Shown in pieces: positions 521 to 9,228 of a stretch of DNA of 9,228 nucleotides. The position numbers and the translations under genes were made by a program. Each line of letters opens with the position of its first letter. Within the stretch, counting starts at the first letter, position 1. The notes beneath the pieces are model-generated. The model ran no database searches and had not been told where the DNA came from. It worked only from the letters and a program-made list of their open reading frames with translations. The DNA is from a virus (taxonomy: Duplodnaviria > Heunggongvirae > Uroviricota > Caudoviricetes), in IMG/VR virus record IMGVR_UViG_2526164665_000028; one strand, given 5' to 3'.

Positions 521-793
521 TCAGACAGGAATTTGCTGACGGTTTGACAGCTTTGACGCGGAGCCATAGCGATTGAGAGTTTGCTGTTGTTTTTCCGGTA
601 TTTTTGCTTTGTCTGATTCCTGTTCATTGCACCGAGGCTTCATAATTATCGTATCCACGCTTTCCAGTGCGGTAAATGTGCAGGAACATTCCAGATTCTG
701 GCACTGATACCATGAGCGTTTAACCGACGGAGCTTCATAGGCGCTGGTTCTGGCGTGAGCGACCGCGCCACATTCAGGACACTTCAGGGCCAT
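521..793 (-). CDS. delta: Ogr/Delta-family zinc-finger late transcription activator (single-domain)
   Basis: ATG at 793 (the longer ORF to 895 overlaps psu). Product MALKCPECGAVAHARTS...YQCQNLECSCTF has the C-x2-C-x22-C-x4-C Ogr/Delta zinc-finger spacing and the AHARTS motif. Start lies 1 nt after the psu stop. Confidence 0.8.
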   Translation of the reverse strand: MALKCPECGAVAHARTSAYEAPSVKRSWYQCQNLECSCTFTALESVDTIIMKPRCNEQESDKAKIPEKQQQTLNRYGSASKLSNRQQIPV

Positions 794-794
794 A

Positions 795-1349
795 TCAGCA
801 CACTCCTTTTTCATTAAGTCGGTTAAGGCGGGCCAGGAAAACTTTATGTTGTGCCGGGGTGAAACTGGCTGAAGCATCAGCGCGCATTGATGCATCCACC
901 GTTAATCCGGTTTCGTCGATAATGCTCTTATATGCTGCTGAAATTACCGGAGTACGCATTTCCGTTTGTCGGGCTACAGCGGTTCGTAATATTTTCATTG
1001 CCGCCTCAAGCCCGTATGGAGCGCAAAGAAAAGGAGCCAGAGCGTCAGTGAGTGCATCACCATGCTCGCTCATGAAGTTTTCCGTTGCGCTTGTAACACA
1101 ACTCTCCAGCACAATCTGATGAGCATAAAGACCATCCCGTGCAGCACAGTTAATCTGCCATTCGAGGACTGCAAGACGCTCACGAAGATCCTCAAGCTGG
1201 CTGGCATATGCTGCCGGTTTTTCTTCAGTATCCAGCAGAGCCGCCAGACGAAGCTGGTAGGTACTTTGCGTATTACGTAGTGTCAGCCAGCTTTTTATCG
1301 CCGAGCGGTAATCGTTGAGTGCTTCCTGAGTAATGGTTCCGGCATTCAT
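795..1349 (-). CDS. psu: Polarity suppression protein Psu (capsid decoration / Rho antagonist)
   Basis: 184-aa product with blocks resembling P4 Psu as I recall it (...ALTDALAPFL..., ...SFTPAQHKVF...). ATG at 1347-1349 overlaps the sid stop (ATGA). Confidence 0.8.
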   Translation of the reverse strand: MNAGTITQEALNDYRSAIKSWLTLRNTQSTYQLRLAALLDTEEKPAAYASQLEDLRERLAVLEWQINCAARDGLYAHQIVLESCVTSATENFMSEHGDALTDALAPFLCAPYGLEAAMKILRTAVARQTEMRTPVISAAYKSIIDETGLTVDASMRADASASFTPAQHKVFLARLNRLNEKGVC

Positions 1350-2098
1350 TTCTTCTCGCCCCCTTTAACCATGTCACGCTGTTTAAGCATCCGTGAACGC
1401 GCTGCAGGGCTGGGGGATTGTCTGGCATCCTGGATGGCTTTATCGTCCGCATAAATGCTGATCCCCGGCAGGGTAATATCATCGGTTGAAGATACGTTAC
1501 AGGACAGTGCCGGAGTGGTGAGTTGCTCGCTGATAAATTGCTTCAGCACACTTTCGGGGTCGTTTACGGTATGAACTACACCGATAACAGCAGAAGCGCT
1601 TCGGCCCAGAGTCATTTTCAGCAGTCCAAGGATCTGAATAAGTTTCTGACCGTGTTCCTTCATAAACTCATTCCAGAGCCACACTGCATGAGTTTCAATC
1701 AGGCGATTATGTTCGCTGATGTAGTGGTTTGCAGCATCCGCAGTTTTCCAGGGCAGGAATTCATTTTCTGCCGCCTGAGCTGCCAGCAAATCTTCGAACT
1801 CATCCAGTGTTTCGCGTCCGAGGGCGATTTCTGCCCGCAGTTTTTTCATGCGTGGCGTCATATTTCCCTGATTCTCACGAAACAGGTTTCGCCATTCATC
1901 ATTAAGCGCCTGCGTTTCCGTTTTTGTATCTTCCTGACGTTTACGGATAGTTTCAATCATTGCAGCAGCTTCAGTTTGTTTTCGTCGTTCTTCCTGCCAG
2001 ACAGCTTTTGCTGCCTTAACTTTATCCACCGCTTCGCGAATTTTCGGTGGGAGGGAGGGTGTAATGTTTGCATCAGGGATCTGGTTAACAGTAGTCAT
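1346..2098 (-). CDS. sid: Sid-like capsid size-determination (external scaffold) protein
   Basis: 250 aa from ATG at 2098, preceded by GGAG 6 nt upstream. The longer ORF to 2131 starts with TTG and has no SD. Size and position (first gene of the leftward late operon, upstream of psu) match P4 sid; coiled-coil-like composition. Confidence 0.75.
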   Translation of the reverse strand: MTTVNQIPDANITPSLPPKIREAVDKVKAAKAVWQEERRKQTEAAAMIETIRKRQEDTKTETQALNDEWRNLFRENQGNMTPRMKKLRAEIALGRETLDEFEDLLAAQAAENEFLPWKTADAANHYISEHNRLIETHAVWLWNEFMKEHGQKLIQILGLLKMTLGRSASAVIGVVHTVNDPESVLKQFISEQLTTPALSCNVSSTDDITLPGISIYADDKAIQDARQSPSPAARSRMLKQRDMVKGGEKK

Positions 2099-2181
2099 GA
2101 CTGCTCCGGTAGTGTTTTGTTGTTGTGTCAATTGTGCCGGGGTCCATACAAGCGCACTACCGAGGAGGATTGTGTCAGTGA

Positions 2182-3012: not shown

Positions 3013-3273
3013 ATGAATAGTATTTCCGTTTCCACCCCGGCACCAGCTGCTCCGGTGCTCCCGGTTCCGGCTCAGCAGGAGCGCTTCATACGATTACCTG
3101 AAGTGATGCACCTTTGCGGGCTATCCCGTTCAACCATCTACGACCTTATCAGCCGCGATGCCTTCCCGCAGCAGATATCCCTGGGTGGAAAAAATGTGGC
3201 CTGGGTACAGTCGGAGGTCAGTGCATGGATGGCGGCGCGAATTGCTGCCCGCGAGCAAGGAGGCCATGCGTGA
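3013..3273 (+). CDS. alpA: AlpA/Vis-family phage transcriptional regulator (excisionase-like HTH)
   Basis: 86 aa; AGAGG 7 nt upstream of ATG. Product ...[49 protein letters not shown]... is the AlpA/Vis helix-turn-helix signature. Confidence 0.85.
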
Positions 3274-3308
3274 AACTTGCTTTGCAGTCTCATCTTCTTT
3301 TTTCTGGC

Positions 3309-3338
3309 TTGCGTCCTGATATCTTTTCCAGGTATAGT
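3309..3338 (+). promoter_or_regulatory. Candidate sigma70 promoter (PLE-like) for the immunity leader
   Basis: TTGCGT (3309-3314), 18-bp spacer, TATAGT (3333-3338), about 30 bp upstream of the first antisense-RNA target site. Confidence 0.3.
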
Positions 3339-3367
3339 TTTCCCGCTGCCGCAAAATCGGCTGCCGG

Positions 3368-3395
3368 GCGTAGGAACCCGAGTTACTTATTGGCG
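3368..3395 (+). promoter_or_regulatory. seqA-like bipartite target for the CI-like antisense RNA
   Basis: Half-sites GTAGGAAC (3370-3377) and CTTATTGG (3386-3393), complementary to TTCCTAC (3545-3551) and CCAATAAG (3529-3536) on the same strand. Confidence 0.5.
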
Positions 3396-3400
3396 ACACC

Positions 3401-3423
3401 AGACGCGCCGTGCGTCTTTTTTT
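3401..3423 (+). terminator. Intrinsic terminator-like hairpin in the immunity leader
   Basis: AGACGC-GCCGT-GCGTCT perfect 6-bp stem followed by TTTTTT. Confidence 0.5.
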
Positions 3424-3487
3424 ACGTCGTTGCTCAGGCACACCCATTTTTCGGGCTGCGGTGCTTATACCTTAGCCCCTTTCAGAT

Positions 3488-3572
3488 AATGGTGGTCCGG
3501 GCGGGGCAGCCTTCGGGCTGGCCGGTTTCCAATAAGGCCGGTATTCCTACCCCCGTTCGGGTCACCACCCAT
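3488..3572 (+). ncRNA. CI / C4-type antisense immunity RNA (boundaries approximate)
   Basis: GGTGGT (3491-3496) pairs with ACCACC (3564-3569) as a terminal stem; internal UUCG-closed hairpin CAGCC-TTCG-GGCTG (3507-3520); exposed region 3526-3552 carries the two blocks complementary to the upstream and downstream targets. The only ORF here (3571-3813, alternative frame) is likely spurious. Confidence 0.5.
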
Positions 3573-3574
3573 GA

Positions 3575-3618
3575 GCGTAGGAACTCCGGTGGTGGCATTT
3601 ACCGCTACTTATTGGAGG
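3575..3618 (+). promoter_or_regulatory. seqC-like second antisense target overlapping the RBS of the next ORF
   Basis: GTAGGAAC (3577-3584) and ACTTATTGG (3607-3615) repeat the seqA-like half-sites; the second abuts and overlaps the GGAGG SD (3614-3618) of the ORF starting at 3627. Confidence 0.5.
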
Positions 3619-3626
3619 TTGCCCTT

Positions 3627-3818
3627 ATGGCTACGATCCTCGCCCCGTCACATCCTCAATTTATATTTGTTTTTGCCGCCGTTCGTCGTGCAGAACGTAA
3701 ACCACGTATCAGTATGCTGCGTATCATCGCCAGCAATGAGCATCATGCACGTCTTTCACTGGTCCATGAGTATGTGCTTTGTCTTGCTGCTCGCCTGCCT
3801 GTCCGGGAGGTGATCTAA
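3627..3818 (+). CDS. Small protein, kil-like by position (first translated gene downstream of the immunity RNA)
   Basis: 63 aa; GGAGG 8 nt upstream of ATG 3627; stop TAA overlaps the next ATG (TAATG). The long overlapping ORF 3114-3818 is an artifact except for this 3' part. Confidence 0.45.
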
Positions 3819-4042
3819 TGAATCACGCCGCAATCTCTTATGACGATATTCTCCGCCTGAAGCATCTTCGTAACGTGGGAGAGTTTGTCACTGGAATGGC
3901 TGTTCTTCAGGATTGCTACGAAAAACCTGCCAGTGCTCAATGTGAACAACTGGTTTCCCTGATTTATCTGATGACAGAGCAGCTTGATGGCGTGGTACAG
4001 CGTTGCCAGGATGACCTCATGAACATGGAGGTGGTGCAATGA
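3818..4042 (+). CDS. Small hypothetical protein of the satellite left operon (epsilon/derepression-protein position)
   Basis: 74 aa from ATG 3818 with GGGAGG 7 nt upstream (the ORF call from 3779 lacks an RBS); stop overlaps the next start (ATGA at 4039-4042). Confidence 0.6.
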
Positions 4043-4362
4043 AATCACGCACTCTTTCCCTTTCACTTCGGGTAGCGTTGTATCGCCGCGCGGTAGCCTG
4101 CGCCTGGTTGAGTGCCTGCTATCAGCAAAACCGCCATCTGCAGCTCACTCTGGATGAAATTGAAACCGCTATTGCCCGTGAGCTTGAAGGATTTTATCTG
4201 CGACAGCACGGGCAAACAAAAGGCATGGAAATCGCCTGCGCCCTGCTTTCAGACCTGATGGAATACGGCCCTCTAATGTCCTGTCCCGCACTCTCCCAGC
4301 TCGGAATAGCCGTAATGGATGAGTTATGCGTCCGTCACATCAAAAAGCCGGTTTTACACTGA
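4039..4362 (+). CDS. Hypothetical protein of the satellite left operon (immediately upstream of primase)
   Basis: 107 aa; GGAGG at 4027-4031 upstream of ATG 4039; translationally coupled to the preceding ORF. Confidence 0.6.
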
Positions 4363-4376
4363 GGGAGAACTGCGTC

Positions 4377-6710
4377 ATGTCAGGAATGAAAGTCAGTCAG
4401 GCCGTGAAGGCTGCCCGCGGTCACTGGGCTCAGATTCTGCCAGCGCTGGGCGTGAATATATTGAAAAATCGCCATCAGCCTTGCCCGGTCTGTGGCGGTA
4501 AAGATCGTTTTCGCTTCGACGATCAGGAAGGACGCGGAACATGGTTCTGCAATCAGTGCGGAGCCGGGGATGGTTTAGCGCTTGTCACCAGGGCACTGAA
4601 TGTGGATATCAGTGAAGCAGCTGACAGGATACATGGACTGACACATGATCTGTCTGTAGTTAATTCCGAGGTCAGGACGTTAACCGCCGATACCGATAGC
4701 GGGAAAGATGCAGCGGCAGCACTTGCCGCGCGACTGCTGCAAGCCTCGCGTGAATCTGCCGGAAACACTTATCTTACACATAAAGGTTTCCCGGAGCATA
4801 TTTGCCATGAGCTGACTTCAGCTCATAAGGCCGGTGGTATGATGTTCCGCCCCGGTGATTTGATCGTCCCACTCTATAACGCTGACGGGGAGCTGGTGAA
4901 TATTCAGCTCATCAGTGGCAATGGTAGCAAGTGTTTTCTTAAAGGAGGTCAGGTTAAGGAGGCCTATCATCTGATAGAAGGGGGCGGGAGTTCTGTAAGA
5001 AGGATTTGGATTGCGGAAGGTTACGCCACGGCGCTTACCATTCATTATTTGACAGGAGAAGCCGTCATGGTGGCATTTTCGTCGGTCAACTTTCTTTCTC
5101 TGAGCAGCGTTGCCCATAATAAGTATCCGGGATATCAGTTAATTATTGCAGCGGACCGCGATCTGAATGGTTCAGGCCAGAACAGGGCTGAAACTGCTGC
5201 AAAAGCGAGTCAGTGTGACATTGTGCTGCCACCGGTTTTTGGTGACTGGAATGATGCGCTTACCCAATACGGAGAGGAATCCACCCGGAAGGCAATTCTT
5301 GAGGCTTTGAAGCCACATAACGCCAGTCCTTTCGACACAATGAGTGAAGCAGAATTCACAGCGATGAGTGTCAGCGAAAAAGCTCAGAGGGTTCGGGAGC
5401 ATTACAGGGATGCACTGGCGGTTGATCCGAACGGGCAGCTTTTATCCCGCTACGAGTCTGGAGCGTGGAAAGTTATTTCTCAGTCAGATTTTGCCCGAGA
5501 TGTCGCAGCCCTTTTCCAGCGCCTCGGGGCACCGTTTTCCTCAGGAAAAATTGCCTCACTGGTGGAAACATTAAAGTTAATTGTTCCGCAGCAGCAAAAT
5601 CCGTCACGTCATCTGATTGGTTTTCGTAATGGCGTTCTCGATACGCGAACAGGGCTTTTTAGTCCGCACTGTAAAGAGAACTGGCTGCGTACCCTGTGTG
5701 AAGTCGATTTCACGCCACCGGTAAAGGGGGAAACGCTTGAAACTCATGCCCCGGCATTCTGGCGTTGGCTGGACCGGGCCGCCGGACACAAGCCAGCAAA
5801 ACGCGACATTATTCTTGCAGCGTTATTTATGGTGCTGGCGAACCGCTATGACTGGCAGCTCTTTCTGGAAGTGACTGGCCCTGGTGGAAGTGGCAAAAGT
5901 ATTCTGGCTGAAATTGCGACCATGCTTGCTGGAGAGGATAACGCCACCTCTGCGACCATTGAAACGCTGGAGTCCCCGCGAGAACGTGCGGCTCTGATAG
6001 GTTTTTCTCTTATTCGCCTGCCTGATCAGGAGAAGTGGAGCGGCGACGGCGCCGGGCTTAAGGCTATAACTGGTGGCGATGCAGTATCTGTGGACCCCAA
6101 ATATCAGAATGCTTATTCAACACATATTCCGGCGGTTATCTTGGCCGTAAATAATAATCCTATGCGCTTCACTGATCGCAGTGGTGGTGTGTCCCGCAGG
6201 AGAGTTATTCTGCATTTTCCTGAGCAGATAGCACCGGAAGAACGCGATCCGCAGTTGAAAGATAAAATTGCACGAGAACTGGCTGTGATTGTTCGTCAGC
6301 TCATGCAGCGTTTCAGCGATCCGATGAGCGCCAGAACATTGCTTCAGTCGCAGCAGAATTCTGATGAGGCTCTCACCATCAAGCGTGATGCTGATCCAGC
6401 ATTTGATTTTTGTGGCTACCTTGAGGCATTACCTGACACCAACGGTATGTTTATGGGGAACGCCAATATTGTCCCACGCCAGCCACGTACATACCTTTAC
6501 CATGCCTACCTCGTATACATGGAGGCTAATGGCTATAAAAACACCCTGAGTCTTACGATGTTTGGCAAAGGGTTGCCAGTCATGCTGAAGGAGTACGGGC
6601 TACATTATGAGAAACGGCGAACTAATCAGGGAATGCAAACTAACCTCACTTTGAAAGAGGAGAGTAATGCAGACTGGCTGCCCAAGTGTGATGAGCCAAT
6701 ATTAAAATAA
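4377..6710 (+). CDS. P4 alpha-type primase-helicase (zinc-ribbon, TOPRIM primase, SF3/D5-type helicase, C-terminal origin-binding region)
   Basis: ATG 4377 with GGGAG 9 nt upstream, giving 777 aa (the ORF call from 4326 overlaps the previous gene). N-terminal CPVCGGKDRFRFDD...WFCNQCGAGDG zinc-binding motif, TOPRIM-like IAEGYATALT...IIAADRD, Walker A VTGPGGSGKS. Confidence 0.9.
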   Translation: MSGMKVSQAVKAARGHWAQILPALGVNILKNRHQPCPVCGGKDRFRFDDQEGRGTWFCNQCGAGDGLALVTRALNVDISEAADRIHGLTHDLSVVNSEVRTLTADTDSGKDAAAALAARLLQASRESAGNTYLTHKGFPEHICHELTSAHKAGGMMFRPGDLIVPLYNADGELVNIQLISGNGSKCFLKGGQVKEAYHLIEGGGSSVRRIWIAEGYATALTIHYLTGEAVMVAFSSVNFLSLSSVAHNKYPGYQLIIAADRDLNGSGQNRAETAAKASQCDIVLPPVFGDWNDALTQYGEESTRKAILEALKPHNASPFDTMSEAEFTAMSVSEKAQRVREHYRDALAVDPNGQLLSRYESGAWKVISQSDFARDVAALFQRLGAPFSSGKIASLVETLKLIVPQQQNPSRHLIGFRNGVLDTRTGLFSPHCKENWLRTLCEVDFTPPVKGETLETHAPAFWRWLDRAAGHKPAKRDIILAALFMVLANRYDWQLFLEVTGPGGSGKSILAEIATMLAGEDNATSATIETLESPRERAALIGFSLIRLPDQEKWSGDGAGLKAITGGDAVSVDPKYQNAYSTHIPAVILAVNNNPMRFTDRSGGVSRRRVILHFPEQIAPEERDPQLKDKIARELAVIVRQLMQRFSDPMSARTLLQSQQNSDEALTIKRDADPAFDFCGYLEALPDTNGMFMGNANIVPRQPRTYLYHAYLVYMEANGYKNTLSLTMFGKGLPVMLKEYGLHYEKRRTNQGMQTNLTLKEESNADWLPKCDEPILK

Positions 6711-6721
6711 CGATTAACTAA

Positions 6722-6746
6722 CCCGGCTGATGCCGGGCTTCTTATT
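6722..6746 (+). terminator. Intrinsic terminator after the primase gene
   Basis: CCCGGC-TGAT-GCCGGG hairpin followed by CTTCTTATT, 12 bp past the alpha stop. Confidence 0.55.
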
Positions 6747-6771
6747 GGAAACGCACAAATGTAGAGATAGC

Positions 6772-7615: not shown

Positions 7616-8440
7616 ATGATAAAGCCATTTTCTGTGAGGTATGGTCATGTTGACGTTAGAGAGCATGTCCAGCTGAATGATCTTAATTCTGATACACGCA
7701 TGGCATTGTGGAATTGCTTATATCTTTTCCTTTGGACTAACAATCGTCAAACTGCTACAGCAACAAAATGTGCGCAGTCTGTGTGGATATATTATCTAAA
7801 TCAACCTGCGGATAATATTCCTCGTTATGAAAGTGGATACAAAAGTGATAAGACGTTGCTGACTGCTATCCGAGATTATATATATGGGGAAGCATGGTAT
7901 TTGGTATATGATTTAATTGAGTTCATCATTGAGAGAACTAATTCATATATTAATCTATCGAAGCATCTCAATTCCATCTTTAAAAAGCATGGCGTTGGTT
8001 ATACCATAATAAATGGTTGTATTACTCCTATTTCAAATGATAACGAAATTGAAAGTGTTCAGAACGCAGTTGATAATGGCACTGATTCATCGCGTAGCCA
8101 TTTCGAAAGGGCGTTACAACTAATGACGGATAGAGAGCAGCCAGACTACAGAAACTCGATTAAAGAGTCTATCTCTGCAATTGAATCTTTATGCAGGAAA
8201 ATCACGGGCAATGATAAAGGAACCTTGGGGGCTTGTCTTAAAGCTATAGAGGAAAAAGGATATATACACTCTGCAATGAAAGGCGCTTTTAGTCAGCTCT
8301 ATGGTTATACAAGTGATCAGGGTGGAATACGTCATGCGCTAACAGAAGAAGATGTAAATCCTACCTTAGCTGAAGCTAAATTTATGTTAGTCACTTGCAG
8401 TGCGTTCAGTAATTATCTGTTGTCAAAAATAAGTGATTAA
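7616..8440 (+). CDS. Hypothetical protein, tentatively AbiJ-like abortive-infection protein (HEPN/Abi_C-like C-terminal region)
   Basis: 274 aa; GGGGAAG upstream of ATG 7616; stop TAA at 8438-8440. Strongly AT-biased codons. N-terminus MIKPFSVRYGHV...ALWN and C-terminal ...YGYTSDQGGIRHALTEED... recall AbiJ-N/Abi_C proteins, but this is from memory of motif patterns only. Confidence 0.55.
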   Translation: MIKPFSVRYGHVDVREHVQLNDLNSDTRMALWNCLYLFLWTNNRQTATATKCAQSVWIYYLNQPADNIPRYESGYKSDKTLLTAIRDYIYGEAWYLVYDLIEFIIERTNSYINLSKHLNSIFKKHGVGYTIINGCITPISNDNEIESVQNAVDNGTDSSRSHFERALQLMTDREQPDYRNSIKESISAIESLCRKITGNDKGTLGACLKAIEEKGYIHSAMKGAFSQLYGYTSDQGGIRHALTEEDVNPTLAEAKFMLVTCSAFSNYLLSKISD

Positions 8441-8488: not shown

Positions 8489-8964
8489 TTATTCACCAGA
8501 CTCTAATCTTTTTTCTCTTTTCTCATCTCTCCTTTTTATTGCCAAATCGTGTTGCTCTTGCAGATACGTGCGTTCTTCGTTTCTATCGCTTGAAGTATAT
8601 ACGTCTGCTTTTACTTTTTTAGCTCCTTGTGCAATAGGTTTCCAATCCTCTCTTATACCTTTAATTTGTTCTGCAATTTGCGTCAATGGGCTTCTCGCTC
8701 CTAGATAACTTATTCCTTCAAATGTCGCCATGTCATACACATATTCATTTGTTTCTCTATCGTTTGATTTAGGTTTGCTTGCCCAGCTTATATTAATATT
8801 ATAAATTTGATCTTTGATTTGTTCATACTTACAGAGATTGCTGGTAAGTGATTGCCCATTTTTTAACACGCTTACCTTACTAAACGGAATCTCACTTTTT
8901 TCTCTATGCTCCGCATTTACTAGTGGAGGATCAAACACAACCTCAACATTATAGGCAGGTGAGG
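8489..8964 (-). pseudogene. Hypothetical protein, 5'-truncated by IS3-family insertion (remnant ORF; first ~44 codons of the 8489-9097 ORF are IS-derived)
   Basis: The ORF reads in frame across the IS terminus at 8965. Downstream of the junction the first in-frame ATG is far inside the ORF; only a GTG at 8936-8938 with a close GAGG is available. AT-rich composition like the neighbouring gene. Confidence 0.5.
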
Positions 8965-8975
8965 TGTACTGGCAA
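8948..8975 (-). promoter_or_regulatory. Hybrid outward promoter at the IS3 junction
   Basis: On the minus strand, TTGCCA (IS terminal repeat, 8970-8975), 16-bp spacer, TATAAT (flanking DNA, 8948-8953), reading into the truncated gene. Confidence 0.4.
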
Positions 8976-9228
8976 TAGCGGACACTACCATTTGTTCTTT
9001 TTTTAAGCAGCCATCTGATGATATTTTTCCCTGAAGGCTGCCGGGGAGATATTCCCCAGACGAGAGTGACGACGCTGACGATTGTAGAAAATCTCAATGT
9101 ATTCCCGTATTACTGAGATGGCTTCATCCCGGTTATTAAAACGATAGTGGCTCAGGCTCTCATTTTTCAGCGTTCCCCAGAAGCTTTCCATCGGAGCGTT
9201 GTCGTAACAGTTACCTTTACGCGACATT
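8965..9228 (-). mobile_element. IS3-family insertion sequence, terminal part (continues right of window)
   Basis: Terminus TGTACTGGCAATAGCGGACAC at 8965-8985 resembles IS3-family terminal inverted repeats (TG end, CAATAGxGGACAC block); the transposase C-terminus lies just inside it. Confidence 0.7.
9003..9228 (-). CDS. IS3-family transposase OrfB C-terminal fragment (integrase catalytic core end)
   Basis: ...GNCYDNAPMESFWGTLKNE...RDEAISVIREYIEIFYNRQRRHSRLGNISPAAFREKY is the conserved C-terminal region of IS3-family OrfB; stop TAA at 9003-9005; 5' end beyond the window. Confidence 0.8.
   Translation of the reverse strand, partial: MSRKGNCYDNAPMESFWGTLKNESLSHYRFNNRDEAISVIREYIEIFYNRQRRHSRLGNISPAAFREKYHQMAA

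Follow-up and report, generated by a model that had tools for sequence, protein, structure and literature searches.

In satellite phage P4, the antisense immunity RNA CI pairs with two sites, seqA and seqC, which leads to premature termination (PMC4825925, PMC3632133, PMC10111431). Kil is translated only upon read-through, and translation of eta from the late promoter prevents termination (PMC10111431); the Rho-dependent terminator fragment of P4, timm, corresponds to positions 8365–8209 of X51522 (PMC3177188). A 2025 review of c4 RNAs described binding around the ribosome-binding site (RBS) with translation blocked (PMC12197685), and in Gifsy-1 of Salmonella (IsrK/STnc1160/orf45-anrP) an RBS is under the control of alternative RNA structures (PMC4825925). 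We analyzed a 9,228-nt stretch of a Caudoviricetes record (IMG/VR IMGVR_UViG_2526164665_000028; hereafter the window, meaning the whole stretch). Judged from its sequence, the window is a P4-like satellite prophage of Escherichia coli, and its positions 3575–3618 are the downstream target of a CI/C4 antisense immunity RNA (seqC in P4 terms, a2 plus b2 in P1 terms). At the sequence level, bipartite complementarity and covariation demonstrated the pairing of CI with a2 and b2, and we consider it very probable that this pairing, at 3577–3583 and 3608–3616, blocks initiation at a kil-like open reading frame (ORF) and keeps the cnr-primase operon off. The elements of the immunity region are as follows.

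3309–3314 and 3333–3338, plus strand: PLE-like promoter within the eta frame (−35 TTGCGT, −10 TATAGT), conserved in the P4 sequence that precedes seqA
3345–3422, plus strand: isrK/seqA-type leader RNA (Rfam RF01394, 72.1 bits; gathering score 50)
3485–3572, plus strand: CI/C4 antisense immunity RNA (Rfam RF01695, 83.4 bits; gathering score 45; full-length model 1–87)
3577–3583, plus strand: a2 half-site GTAGGAA, complementary to TTCCTAC at 3544–3550 (CI junction)
3608–3616, plus strand: b2 half-site CTTATTGGA, complementary to the CI loop 3528–3536, its last 3 nt being the first 3 nt of the Shine-Dalgarno (SD) sequence
3614–3618, plus strand: SD sequence GGAGG of kil, with an 8-nt spacer to the ATG at 3627
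3627–3818, plus strand: 63-codon kil/icd-like ORF, lying in frame within the eta ORF
3270–3818 (mechanical ORF start 3114), plus strand: eta-like ORF, ‘Icd-like protein’ in RefSeq, which reads through seqA, CI and seqC

Gene order (delta-psu-sid / vis/alpA-eta[seqA-CI-seqC-kil]-...-cnr-alpha) and the position of every RNA element were the same as in P4, as were the arrangement GGAGG-N8-ATGGCTAC and the three nucleotides by which b2 overlaps the SD (TTCACAGGA in P4). The window differed from P4 in nucleotide sequence (identity ~74%), in the CI segments a' (TTCCTAC in the window, TTCTCAC in P4) and b' (CCAATAAG and CCTGTGAA, respectively), and in Kil length (63 aa versus 65 aa in P4); it lacked the 45 nt that P4 has inserted between t1 and CI, and an unrelated 74-codon ORF replaced P4 epsilon and orf151. 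The immI region of P1/P7 (c4, a1/b1, a2/b2, icd-ant) shares with the window the Rfam C4 family, the loop-and-junction design of a' and b', a helix described below as helix W, an overlap of b2 with the SD of the Icd gene at an 8-nt spacing (icd start 48470), and a first ORF of the Icd family. The initial annotation had stated that the equivalent P1 site overlaps the icd RBS, and the P1 record agrees: b2 at 48452–48459 is annotated ‘repression of icd ant translation’, and GTTAGTGA overlaps GAGG by 2 nt. The nearest homologue of the window site is nonetheless seqC/kil of P4, not P1. P1 differs in its cargo (the antirepressor ant1/2, not a primase), in its C1-controlled promoter and in being a plasmid prophage, not a satellite; besides, tblastn of the window Kil against P1 gave no match at E<1e-3. 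The secondary immunity regions of N15, phiKO2 and PY54 also contain an isrK-like and C4 RNA pair and icd, with b2 beside the icd SD, whereas these elements are linear plasmid prophages with an antirepressor (antA/B) as cargo. The b2 site overlaps the SD in P1, an Stx2a phage and PY54, and immediately adjoins it in phiKO2 and N15. In Gifsy-1, too, an isrK-family RNA that carries a terminator of its own precedes a stable, processed RNA, but the cargo there is an antiterminator cascade (PMC4825925). The design is already known from P1 c4/icd and P4 CI/kil; the P4-like prophage that carries it here is common in E. coli but uncharacterised.

CI RNA and its downstream target

The CI RNA was predicted to form a cloverleaf-like fold (−47.2 kcal/mol, z = −3.25), in which b' (3528–3536) is located in the loop of hairpin 2 and a' (3544–3550) in a single-stranded junction. 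Its internal helices were 100% paired in 43 distinct sequences and included 6 covarying pairs. CCA is present at 3565–3567, the end of the closing stem, and the mature RNA probably corresponds to ~3490–3567, ending in this CCA. In work by Forti and colleagues from 2002, CI RNA is reported to be processed from the leader, with RNase P acting at its 5' end and with a requirement for the 3' CCA. The first target, in seqA, consists of a1 (3370–3376, extendable to 3365–3376) and b1 (3386–3393), and a terminator scan identified an intrinsic terminator there (stem 3401–3417 plus a T run, to 3422). The isrK match starts at 3345, which is 7 nt past the −10 element of the PLE-like promoter; this promoter was assigned by homology because a strict consensus promoter scan did not flag the site at 3309–3338. 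A cloverleaf RNA, a bipartite downstream target, an upstream target with an intrinsic terminator and a target at the Icd/Kil RBS, which together characterize C4/CI modules, were all found in the window. HnrS (PMC13502914) was examined as a possible relative of isrK and set aside, as no link was found.

The initial annotation described a half-site, ACTTATTGG (3607–3615), that runs into GGAGG (3614–3618) with 8 nt (3619–3626) between the latter and the ATG (3627–3629). This layout was confirmed except for the register of the half-site, which was one base off: A3607 is opposite G3537, with which it is not complementary, and the true complementary register is CTTATTGGA (3608–3616) against TCCAATAAG (3528–3536), 9 nt with 100% complementarity. 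The b pairing reaches into the SD by three Watson-Crick pairs (G3614, G3615 and A3616), and with a G.U pair that RNAduplex added at G3617 the duplex has 10 bp and an energy of −12.7 kcal/mol. Duplex energies were −9.3 kcal/mol for the a pairing and −17.3 kcal/mol for its extended form, and the opening cost was 2.4 kcal/mol for b' plus a' in CI and 9.5–13.3 kcal/mol for the target. We relied on duplex and opening energies for this purpose; RNAcofold of CI with the target was uninformative because, once the two RNAs are concatenated, pairing of the target with a loop inside the closed CI stem amounts to a pseudoknot.

Both half-sites are found in direct repeats. GCGTAGGAAC occurs at 3368–3377 and 3575–3584, with a core complementary to TTCCTAC at 3544–3550, and TACTTATTGG occurs at 3384–3393 and 3606–3615, with a core complementary to TCCAATAAG at 3528–3536. 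The motif CTTATTGG is present in 4 copies in the window versus 0.32 expected (none of 200 shuffles reached 4), and three of these copies are inside 230 nt and oriented as the antisense model requires; for GTAGGAA, 3 copies were found versus 0.65 expected. The fourth CTTATTGG copy, on the plus strand at 6741–6748, is located just past the end of the primase gene (stop codon at 6710); a single additional copy could arise by chance.

To compare related loci, 44 loci from Enterobacteriaceae (L003–L046), obtained by using an Eta alignment to scan a single genome of each species, were aligned with MAFFT over the region equivalent to 3340–3635. For the 16 CI:seqC pairs, 96.4% of cells were paired, compared with 69.4% in column shuffles and 38–48% when the partner was slid by 1–3 columns. 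Thirteen of these 16 pairs were altered on both sides (174 cells), and the observed covariation score was reached by 0 of 500 shuffles. Most of the unpaired cells belonged to five P4-clade sequences, which were one column out of register in the MAFFT alignment; in a register-free count, all 8 of the 8 b':b2 pairs were formed in each of the 44 loci. Changes on both sides were seen in 7 of 9 b':b2 pairs, and the a':a2 helix was 100% paired in 43 sequences, with up to three pair types at 6 of its 7 pairs. The CI:seqA set behaved in the same way (93.7% paired; 12 of 20 pairs altered on both sides; score reached by 0 of 500 shuffles). Every a'/b' allele has its complement in seqC and, one exception apart, in seqA. 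In both sets G.U pairs were tolerated on the plus strand only, which points to RNA pairing and not to a DNA operator. Also, an exact Watson-Crick b2 match of 7–11 nt overlapped the SD by 1–5 nt in 44 of 44 loci; GGAGG was present in 41, the kil start codon was invariant, and the SD-ATG spacer was 8 nt long (7 nt in five P4-clade loci). The proposal of the initial annotation that this site is an antisense target is thereby well supported, by an Rfam C4 RNA located 5' of the site and by compensatory covariation with both half-sites, and the overlap with the SD of the first small ORF, which it had also reported, is kept in all related loci.

The kil-like gene and the proposed block of its translation

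The window Kil showed 71% identity to Kil of P4 (the C-terminal 65 residues encoded by the P4 ORF at L001 1426–2070) and 43–49% identity to Icd of N15, phiKO2 and PY54, and it matched the whole NCBIfam model NF033153 (phage_ICD_like) at 70.4 bits (cut-off 25). The ORF was intact at 63–65 codons in 42 of the 44 loci. Pairwise diversity at the three codon positions was 0.076, 0.062 and 0.310, and the ratio of nonsynonymous to synonymous polymorphism (pN/pS) was 0.19 in the kil frame versus ~2 in the other two frames. From intactness, codon-position diversity, pN/pS and the family match we conclude that kil is a real gene under purifying selection. An alternative ORF of 80 aa beginning at ATG 3571 was rejected, having a pN/pS of ~1.9 and no SD.

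The eta-like ORF, the start of which overlaps the stop of the upstream helix-turn-helix gene (3273) by 4 nt, has a frame that stays open over the 83–175 codons preceding kil in every one of the 44 loci, with indels that are multiples of three. Neither codon-position periodicity nor a third-position excess was seen in this frame upstream of kil (seqA-CI-seqC) in the 44 loci. Conservation upstream of 3627 seems to concern the RNA and the absence of stops from the frame, and not the protein sequence. The Phage_ASH match (aa 74–183 of the 234-aa ORF, ~3333–3663 in the window) falls on the RNA-conserved region, and this ‘protein family’ may largely be a reflection of RNA conservation.

The block of kil initiation by CI would operate as follows. 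A constitutive PLE-like promoter (~3309–3338) would give transcripts containing seqA with its terminator, CI, seqC and kil-orf74-cnr-alpha. CI would be excised from the leader and then accumulate, and its junction (3544–3550) and loop (3528–3536) would pair with a2 (3577–3583) and b2 (3608–3616) of new transcripts. As b2 continues into GGAGG, the duplex would cover the kil RBS and leave kil untranslated; the untranslated RNA would be terminated early, as in P4 at the Rho-dependent timm inside kil, and the primase operon would stay off. In transcripts from an upstream late promoter, eta would be translated across the region, allowing escape from termination. We infer CI processing, the translational block and Rho-dependent polarity in the window from P4 and P1. 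A coupling of kil translation to downstream transcription, which the initial annotation had proposed, is the published P4 model (summarized in PMC10111431). P4 timm occupies positions 1873–2029 of the P4 locus and its start coincides exactly with the P4 kil ATG; the window is homologous there, and the first ~157 nt of its kil gene (3627–3783) are the counterpart of timm. At ~3599–3700 the content of C (28–29%) exceeds that of G (17–18%), a weak compositional hint of Rho dependence that is confounded by coding constraints.

Several points weigh against RBS occlusion as the full explanation. Coverage of the SD is limited to three Watson-Crick pairs and 1–2 G.U pairs, and in some relatives (phiKO2, N15) b2 only abuts the SD. 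The SD is predicted to be partly paired in cis, with an opening cost of 6.2 kcal/mol that is indistinguishable from shuffled leaders. Furthermore, in the P4 work of Briani and colleagues from 2000, timm is reportedly dispensable for lysogeny, and termination in lysogens is reported to occur mainly at t4, a Rho-independent site located between cI and timm; the terminator that follows seqA, t1, reportedly serves CI autoregulation. If this picture of t4 carries over to the window, RBS occlusion may be a secondary layer and not the sole or main route.

Helix W and competing explanations

A further conserved pairing, helix W, connects the closing stem of CI, through its 3' strand, with the a2–b2 spacer. 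Its location in the window and its strands in relatives are listed below.

3561–3569 with 3588–3596, plus strand: helix W, CI 3' strand GTCACCACC, spacer GGTGGTGGC
3573–3575 with 3584–3586, plus strand: mini-helix X, which presents a2 in a closed loop of 8 nt, comparable to a1 in the seqA hairpin
P4: helix W, CI 3' strand GCTATCGCC, spacer GGCGATAGC
N15: helix W, CI 3' strand GCTACCACC, spacer GGTGGTAGC
Stx2a phage: helix W, CI 3' strand CTCACCACC, spacer GGTGGTGAG
phiKO2: helix W, CI 3' strand GGGTCACCACC, spacer GGTGGTGATCT
P1: helix W, CI 3' strand CCTGCCACC, spacer GGTAGCAGG, one mismatch

Helix W was 99.3% paired in 49 sequences (46 distinct), which included P1, N15, PY54, phiKO2 and an Stx2a phage (the relatives L001, L002 and L048–L051 were used in addition to the window and the P4-like loci). 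Six of its 9 pairs were altered on both sides; in the shuffling test the number of pairs altered on both sides was 7 versus 3.6 ± 1.1 in shuffles, and none of 500 shuffles reached 7. The region of helix W alone had a folding energy of −18.4 kcal/mol (z = −2.2). This helix is mutually exclusive with the lower CI stem and with a hairpin in the spacer. In predicted folds of transcripts ending at 3597–3618 helix W replaced the lower CI stem, and the full CI stem was back once the end reached 3630. As helix W can form only before CI excision, it would compete with CI maturation. No description of helix W was found in the searchable literature, a search that the primary P1 and P4 papers fell outside.

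These properties are also relevant to a different possibility, which we regard as tentative: pairing of CI with seqC may remodel the nascent RNA and cause factor-independent termination just upstream of kil, in the manner of t4, with translation uninvolved and the SD overlap either incidental or a back-up. Conservation of helix W from P4-like elements to P1, its incompatibility with the spacer hairpin and with the lower part of the CI stem, and the predicted alternation of the co-transcriptional fold of the window between these states are what an attenuator-type switch would need. A terminator scan flagged 3587–3613, where a terminator-like hairpin (3587–3604, CGGTGGTGGCATTTACCG) is followed by CTACTTATTG, although the hairpin is short (5–6 bp) and has a U-rich tail for the b2 allele of the window only, the alleles CTCAATGG and TTCACAGG having no U tract. 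The location and Rho independence of t4, as reported by Briani and colleagues, would fit such a terminator, but the overlap or abutment of b2 and the SD was invariant in all lineages examined, which is hard to explain if translation were irrelevant, and the effect annotated in P1 is translational repression. The hairpin at 3587–3604 with CTACTTATTG is inside seqC and is a possible counterpart of P4 t4.

An improbable explanation is that the kil RBS is closed mainly in cis, through CUCC (3584–3587) pairing with GGAG (3614–3617) together with the spacer hairpin, and that CI merely stabilizes or exchanges local structure. The minimum free energy fold of most of the 44 leaders paired the SD with CUCC or UUCC, the median SD opening cost was 6.2 kcal/mol and CUCC:GGAG was 95% paired; however, these columns are nearly invariant and showed no covariation (237 of 500 shuffles were equal), shuffled upstream sequence gave an SD opening cost of 4.74 ± 1.71 kcal/mol with 16% of shuffles at least as closed, and the z-score of the leader fold was only −1.5. 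A cis anti-SD hairpin was not supported as a significant feature, being without covariation and similar to shuffles. Finally, the reading of the repeated 7–9-mers as chance repeats, operators of a protein repressor or Eta peptide motifs, for which one could cite that Eta reads through all three sites and that an old P4 annotation called the ORF ‘cI gene product / transcriptional repressor’, is effectively refuted by the copy excess of CTTATTGG (4 observed, 0.32 expected), by covariation of the sites as complements of the RNA loop with one-strand tolerance of G.U (A.C on the other strand), by the absence of codon-position periodicity in the eta frame over seqA-CI-seqC, and by matches to Rfam covariance models well above gathering scores.

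Genomic setting, immunity alleles and implications

The P4 core genes delta, psu, sid-like, Ash/eta, DUF5375 and primase were found in P4 order in the window, based on Pfam, the P4 record and RefSeq annotation; an integrase gene and a cos site would be located beyond its ends. Genes outside the immunity region, together with the Pfam view of eta, are listed below.

521–895, minus strand: Ogr/Delta (Pfam)
795–1349, minus strand: Psu (Pfam)
1346–2131, minus strand: sid-like protein, Psu-related (second Psu match in Pfam)
3013–3273, plus strand: helix-turn-helix (HTH) gene upstream of eta (RefSeq annotation of the identical E. coli locus)
3114–3818, plus strand: Ash-family ORF (Pfam Phage_ASH)
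3818–4042, plus strand: orf74, 74 codons, translationally coupled, with a TAATG overlap with kil
4039–4362, plus strand: cnr-like DUF5375 gene (Pfam), with an ATGA overlap with orf74 and in the position of cnr
4326–6710 (RefSeq start 4377), plus strand: alpha-type primase-helicase (Pfam, RefSeq)
7616–8440: AbiJ-like protein with an AbiJ-NTD4 domain (Pfam)

The operon formed by orf74, the cnr-like gene and the primase (3818–6710) is presumed to be under CI/seqC control. The orf74 product, in the position of P4 epsilon/orf151, had no match in Pfam or NCBIfam. Downstream of the primase, an unassigned 202-codon ORF (8489–9097, minus strand) accompanies the AbiJ-NTD4 gene (7616–8440), a position that is a known anti-phage defence hotspot in P4. 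The 491 bp at 3340–3830 showed 100% identity to the chromosomes of Shiga toxin-producing E. coli strains, O26 and O103 among them, and at least 99% identity in 158 complete-genome records, and related sequence was found in 1172 of 5426 genomes. In a blastn comparison of 3300–4100 with P4, identity was 74.5% over 57% of the query; megablast of the window against phage records gave nothing relevant, and P4 was detected by blastn only. For the identical locus, RefSeq gives nothing but coding sequences (HTH protein, ‘host cell division inhibitor Icd-like protein’, hypothetical, DUF5375 and primase). In E. coli O26 RM8426 (L047; NZ_CP028116.1, 5497523–5506013) RefSeq lists no RNA genes, though C4 and isrK exceed Rfam gathering scores, so that the CI and seqA RNAs and their targets are missing from the annotation of this locus. 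In the same strain an ISCro1 transposase adjoins the delta gene.

Analysis of the equivalents of 3528–3550 in the 44 loci revealed about six a' alleles (TTCCTAC, ACGCCAA, TTCTCAC, CTGCAAA, TTTCCAC and others) and about nine b' alleles (CCAATAAG, CCATTGAG, CCTTGAAG, CCATAGTT, TCGATGGA, the P4 allele CCTGTGAA and others), which occurred in 21 (a', b') combinations. This number of combinations indicates that a and b are modules that reassort freely and independently of each other. Between the window and P4, the alleles of a differ at 2 positions and those of b at 4; since both half-sites differ, the element is predicted to be heteroimmune to P4. In one locus, from Mangrovibacter yixingensis (L028 36–331), seqA (GTAGGAA / CTCAATGG) mismatches its own CI (TTTCCAC / CCGTTAGA), while seqC matches. 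Its seqA module was apparently acquired from elsewhere by recombination, suggesting that of the two targets seqC is the less dispensable.

It is conceivable, if somewhat doubtful, that seqC is an arm of a conserved cis-acting RNA switch, by which a transcript either matures to repressor or serves as mRNA, with CI acting in trans to tip the choice. Helix W, which is possibly a new element, would, if functional, add a cis-acting layer to a 30-year-old model, and helix W and the modular alleles might be the parts worth more work. The target map, backed by covariation, would be of use for engineering or typing P4-like elements, and the a'/b' allele pair would predict mutual exclusion among P4-like satellites. 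Reassortment of half-sites would imply many immunity types and a large combinatorial specificity space among these satellites.

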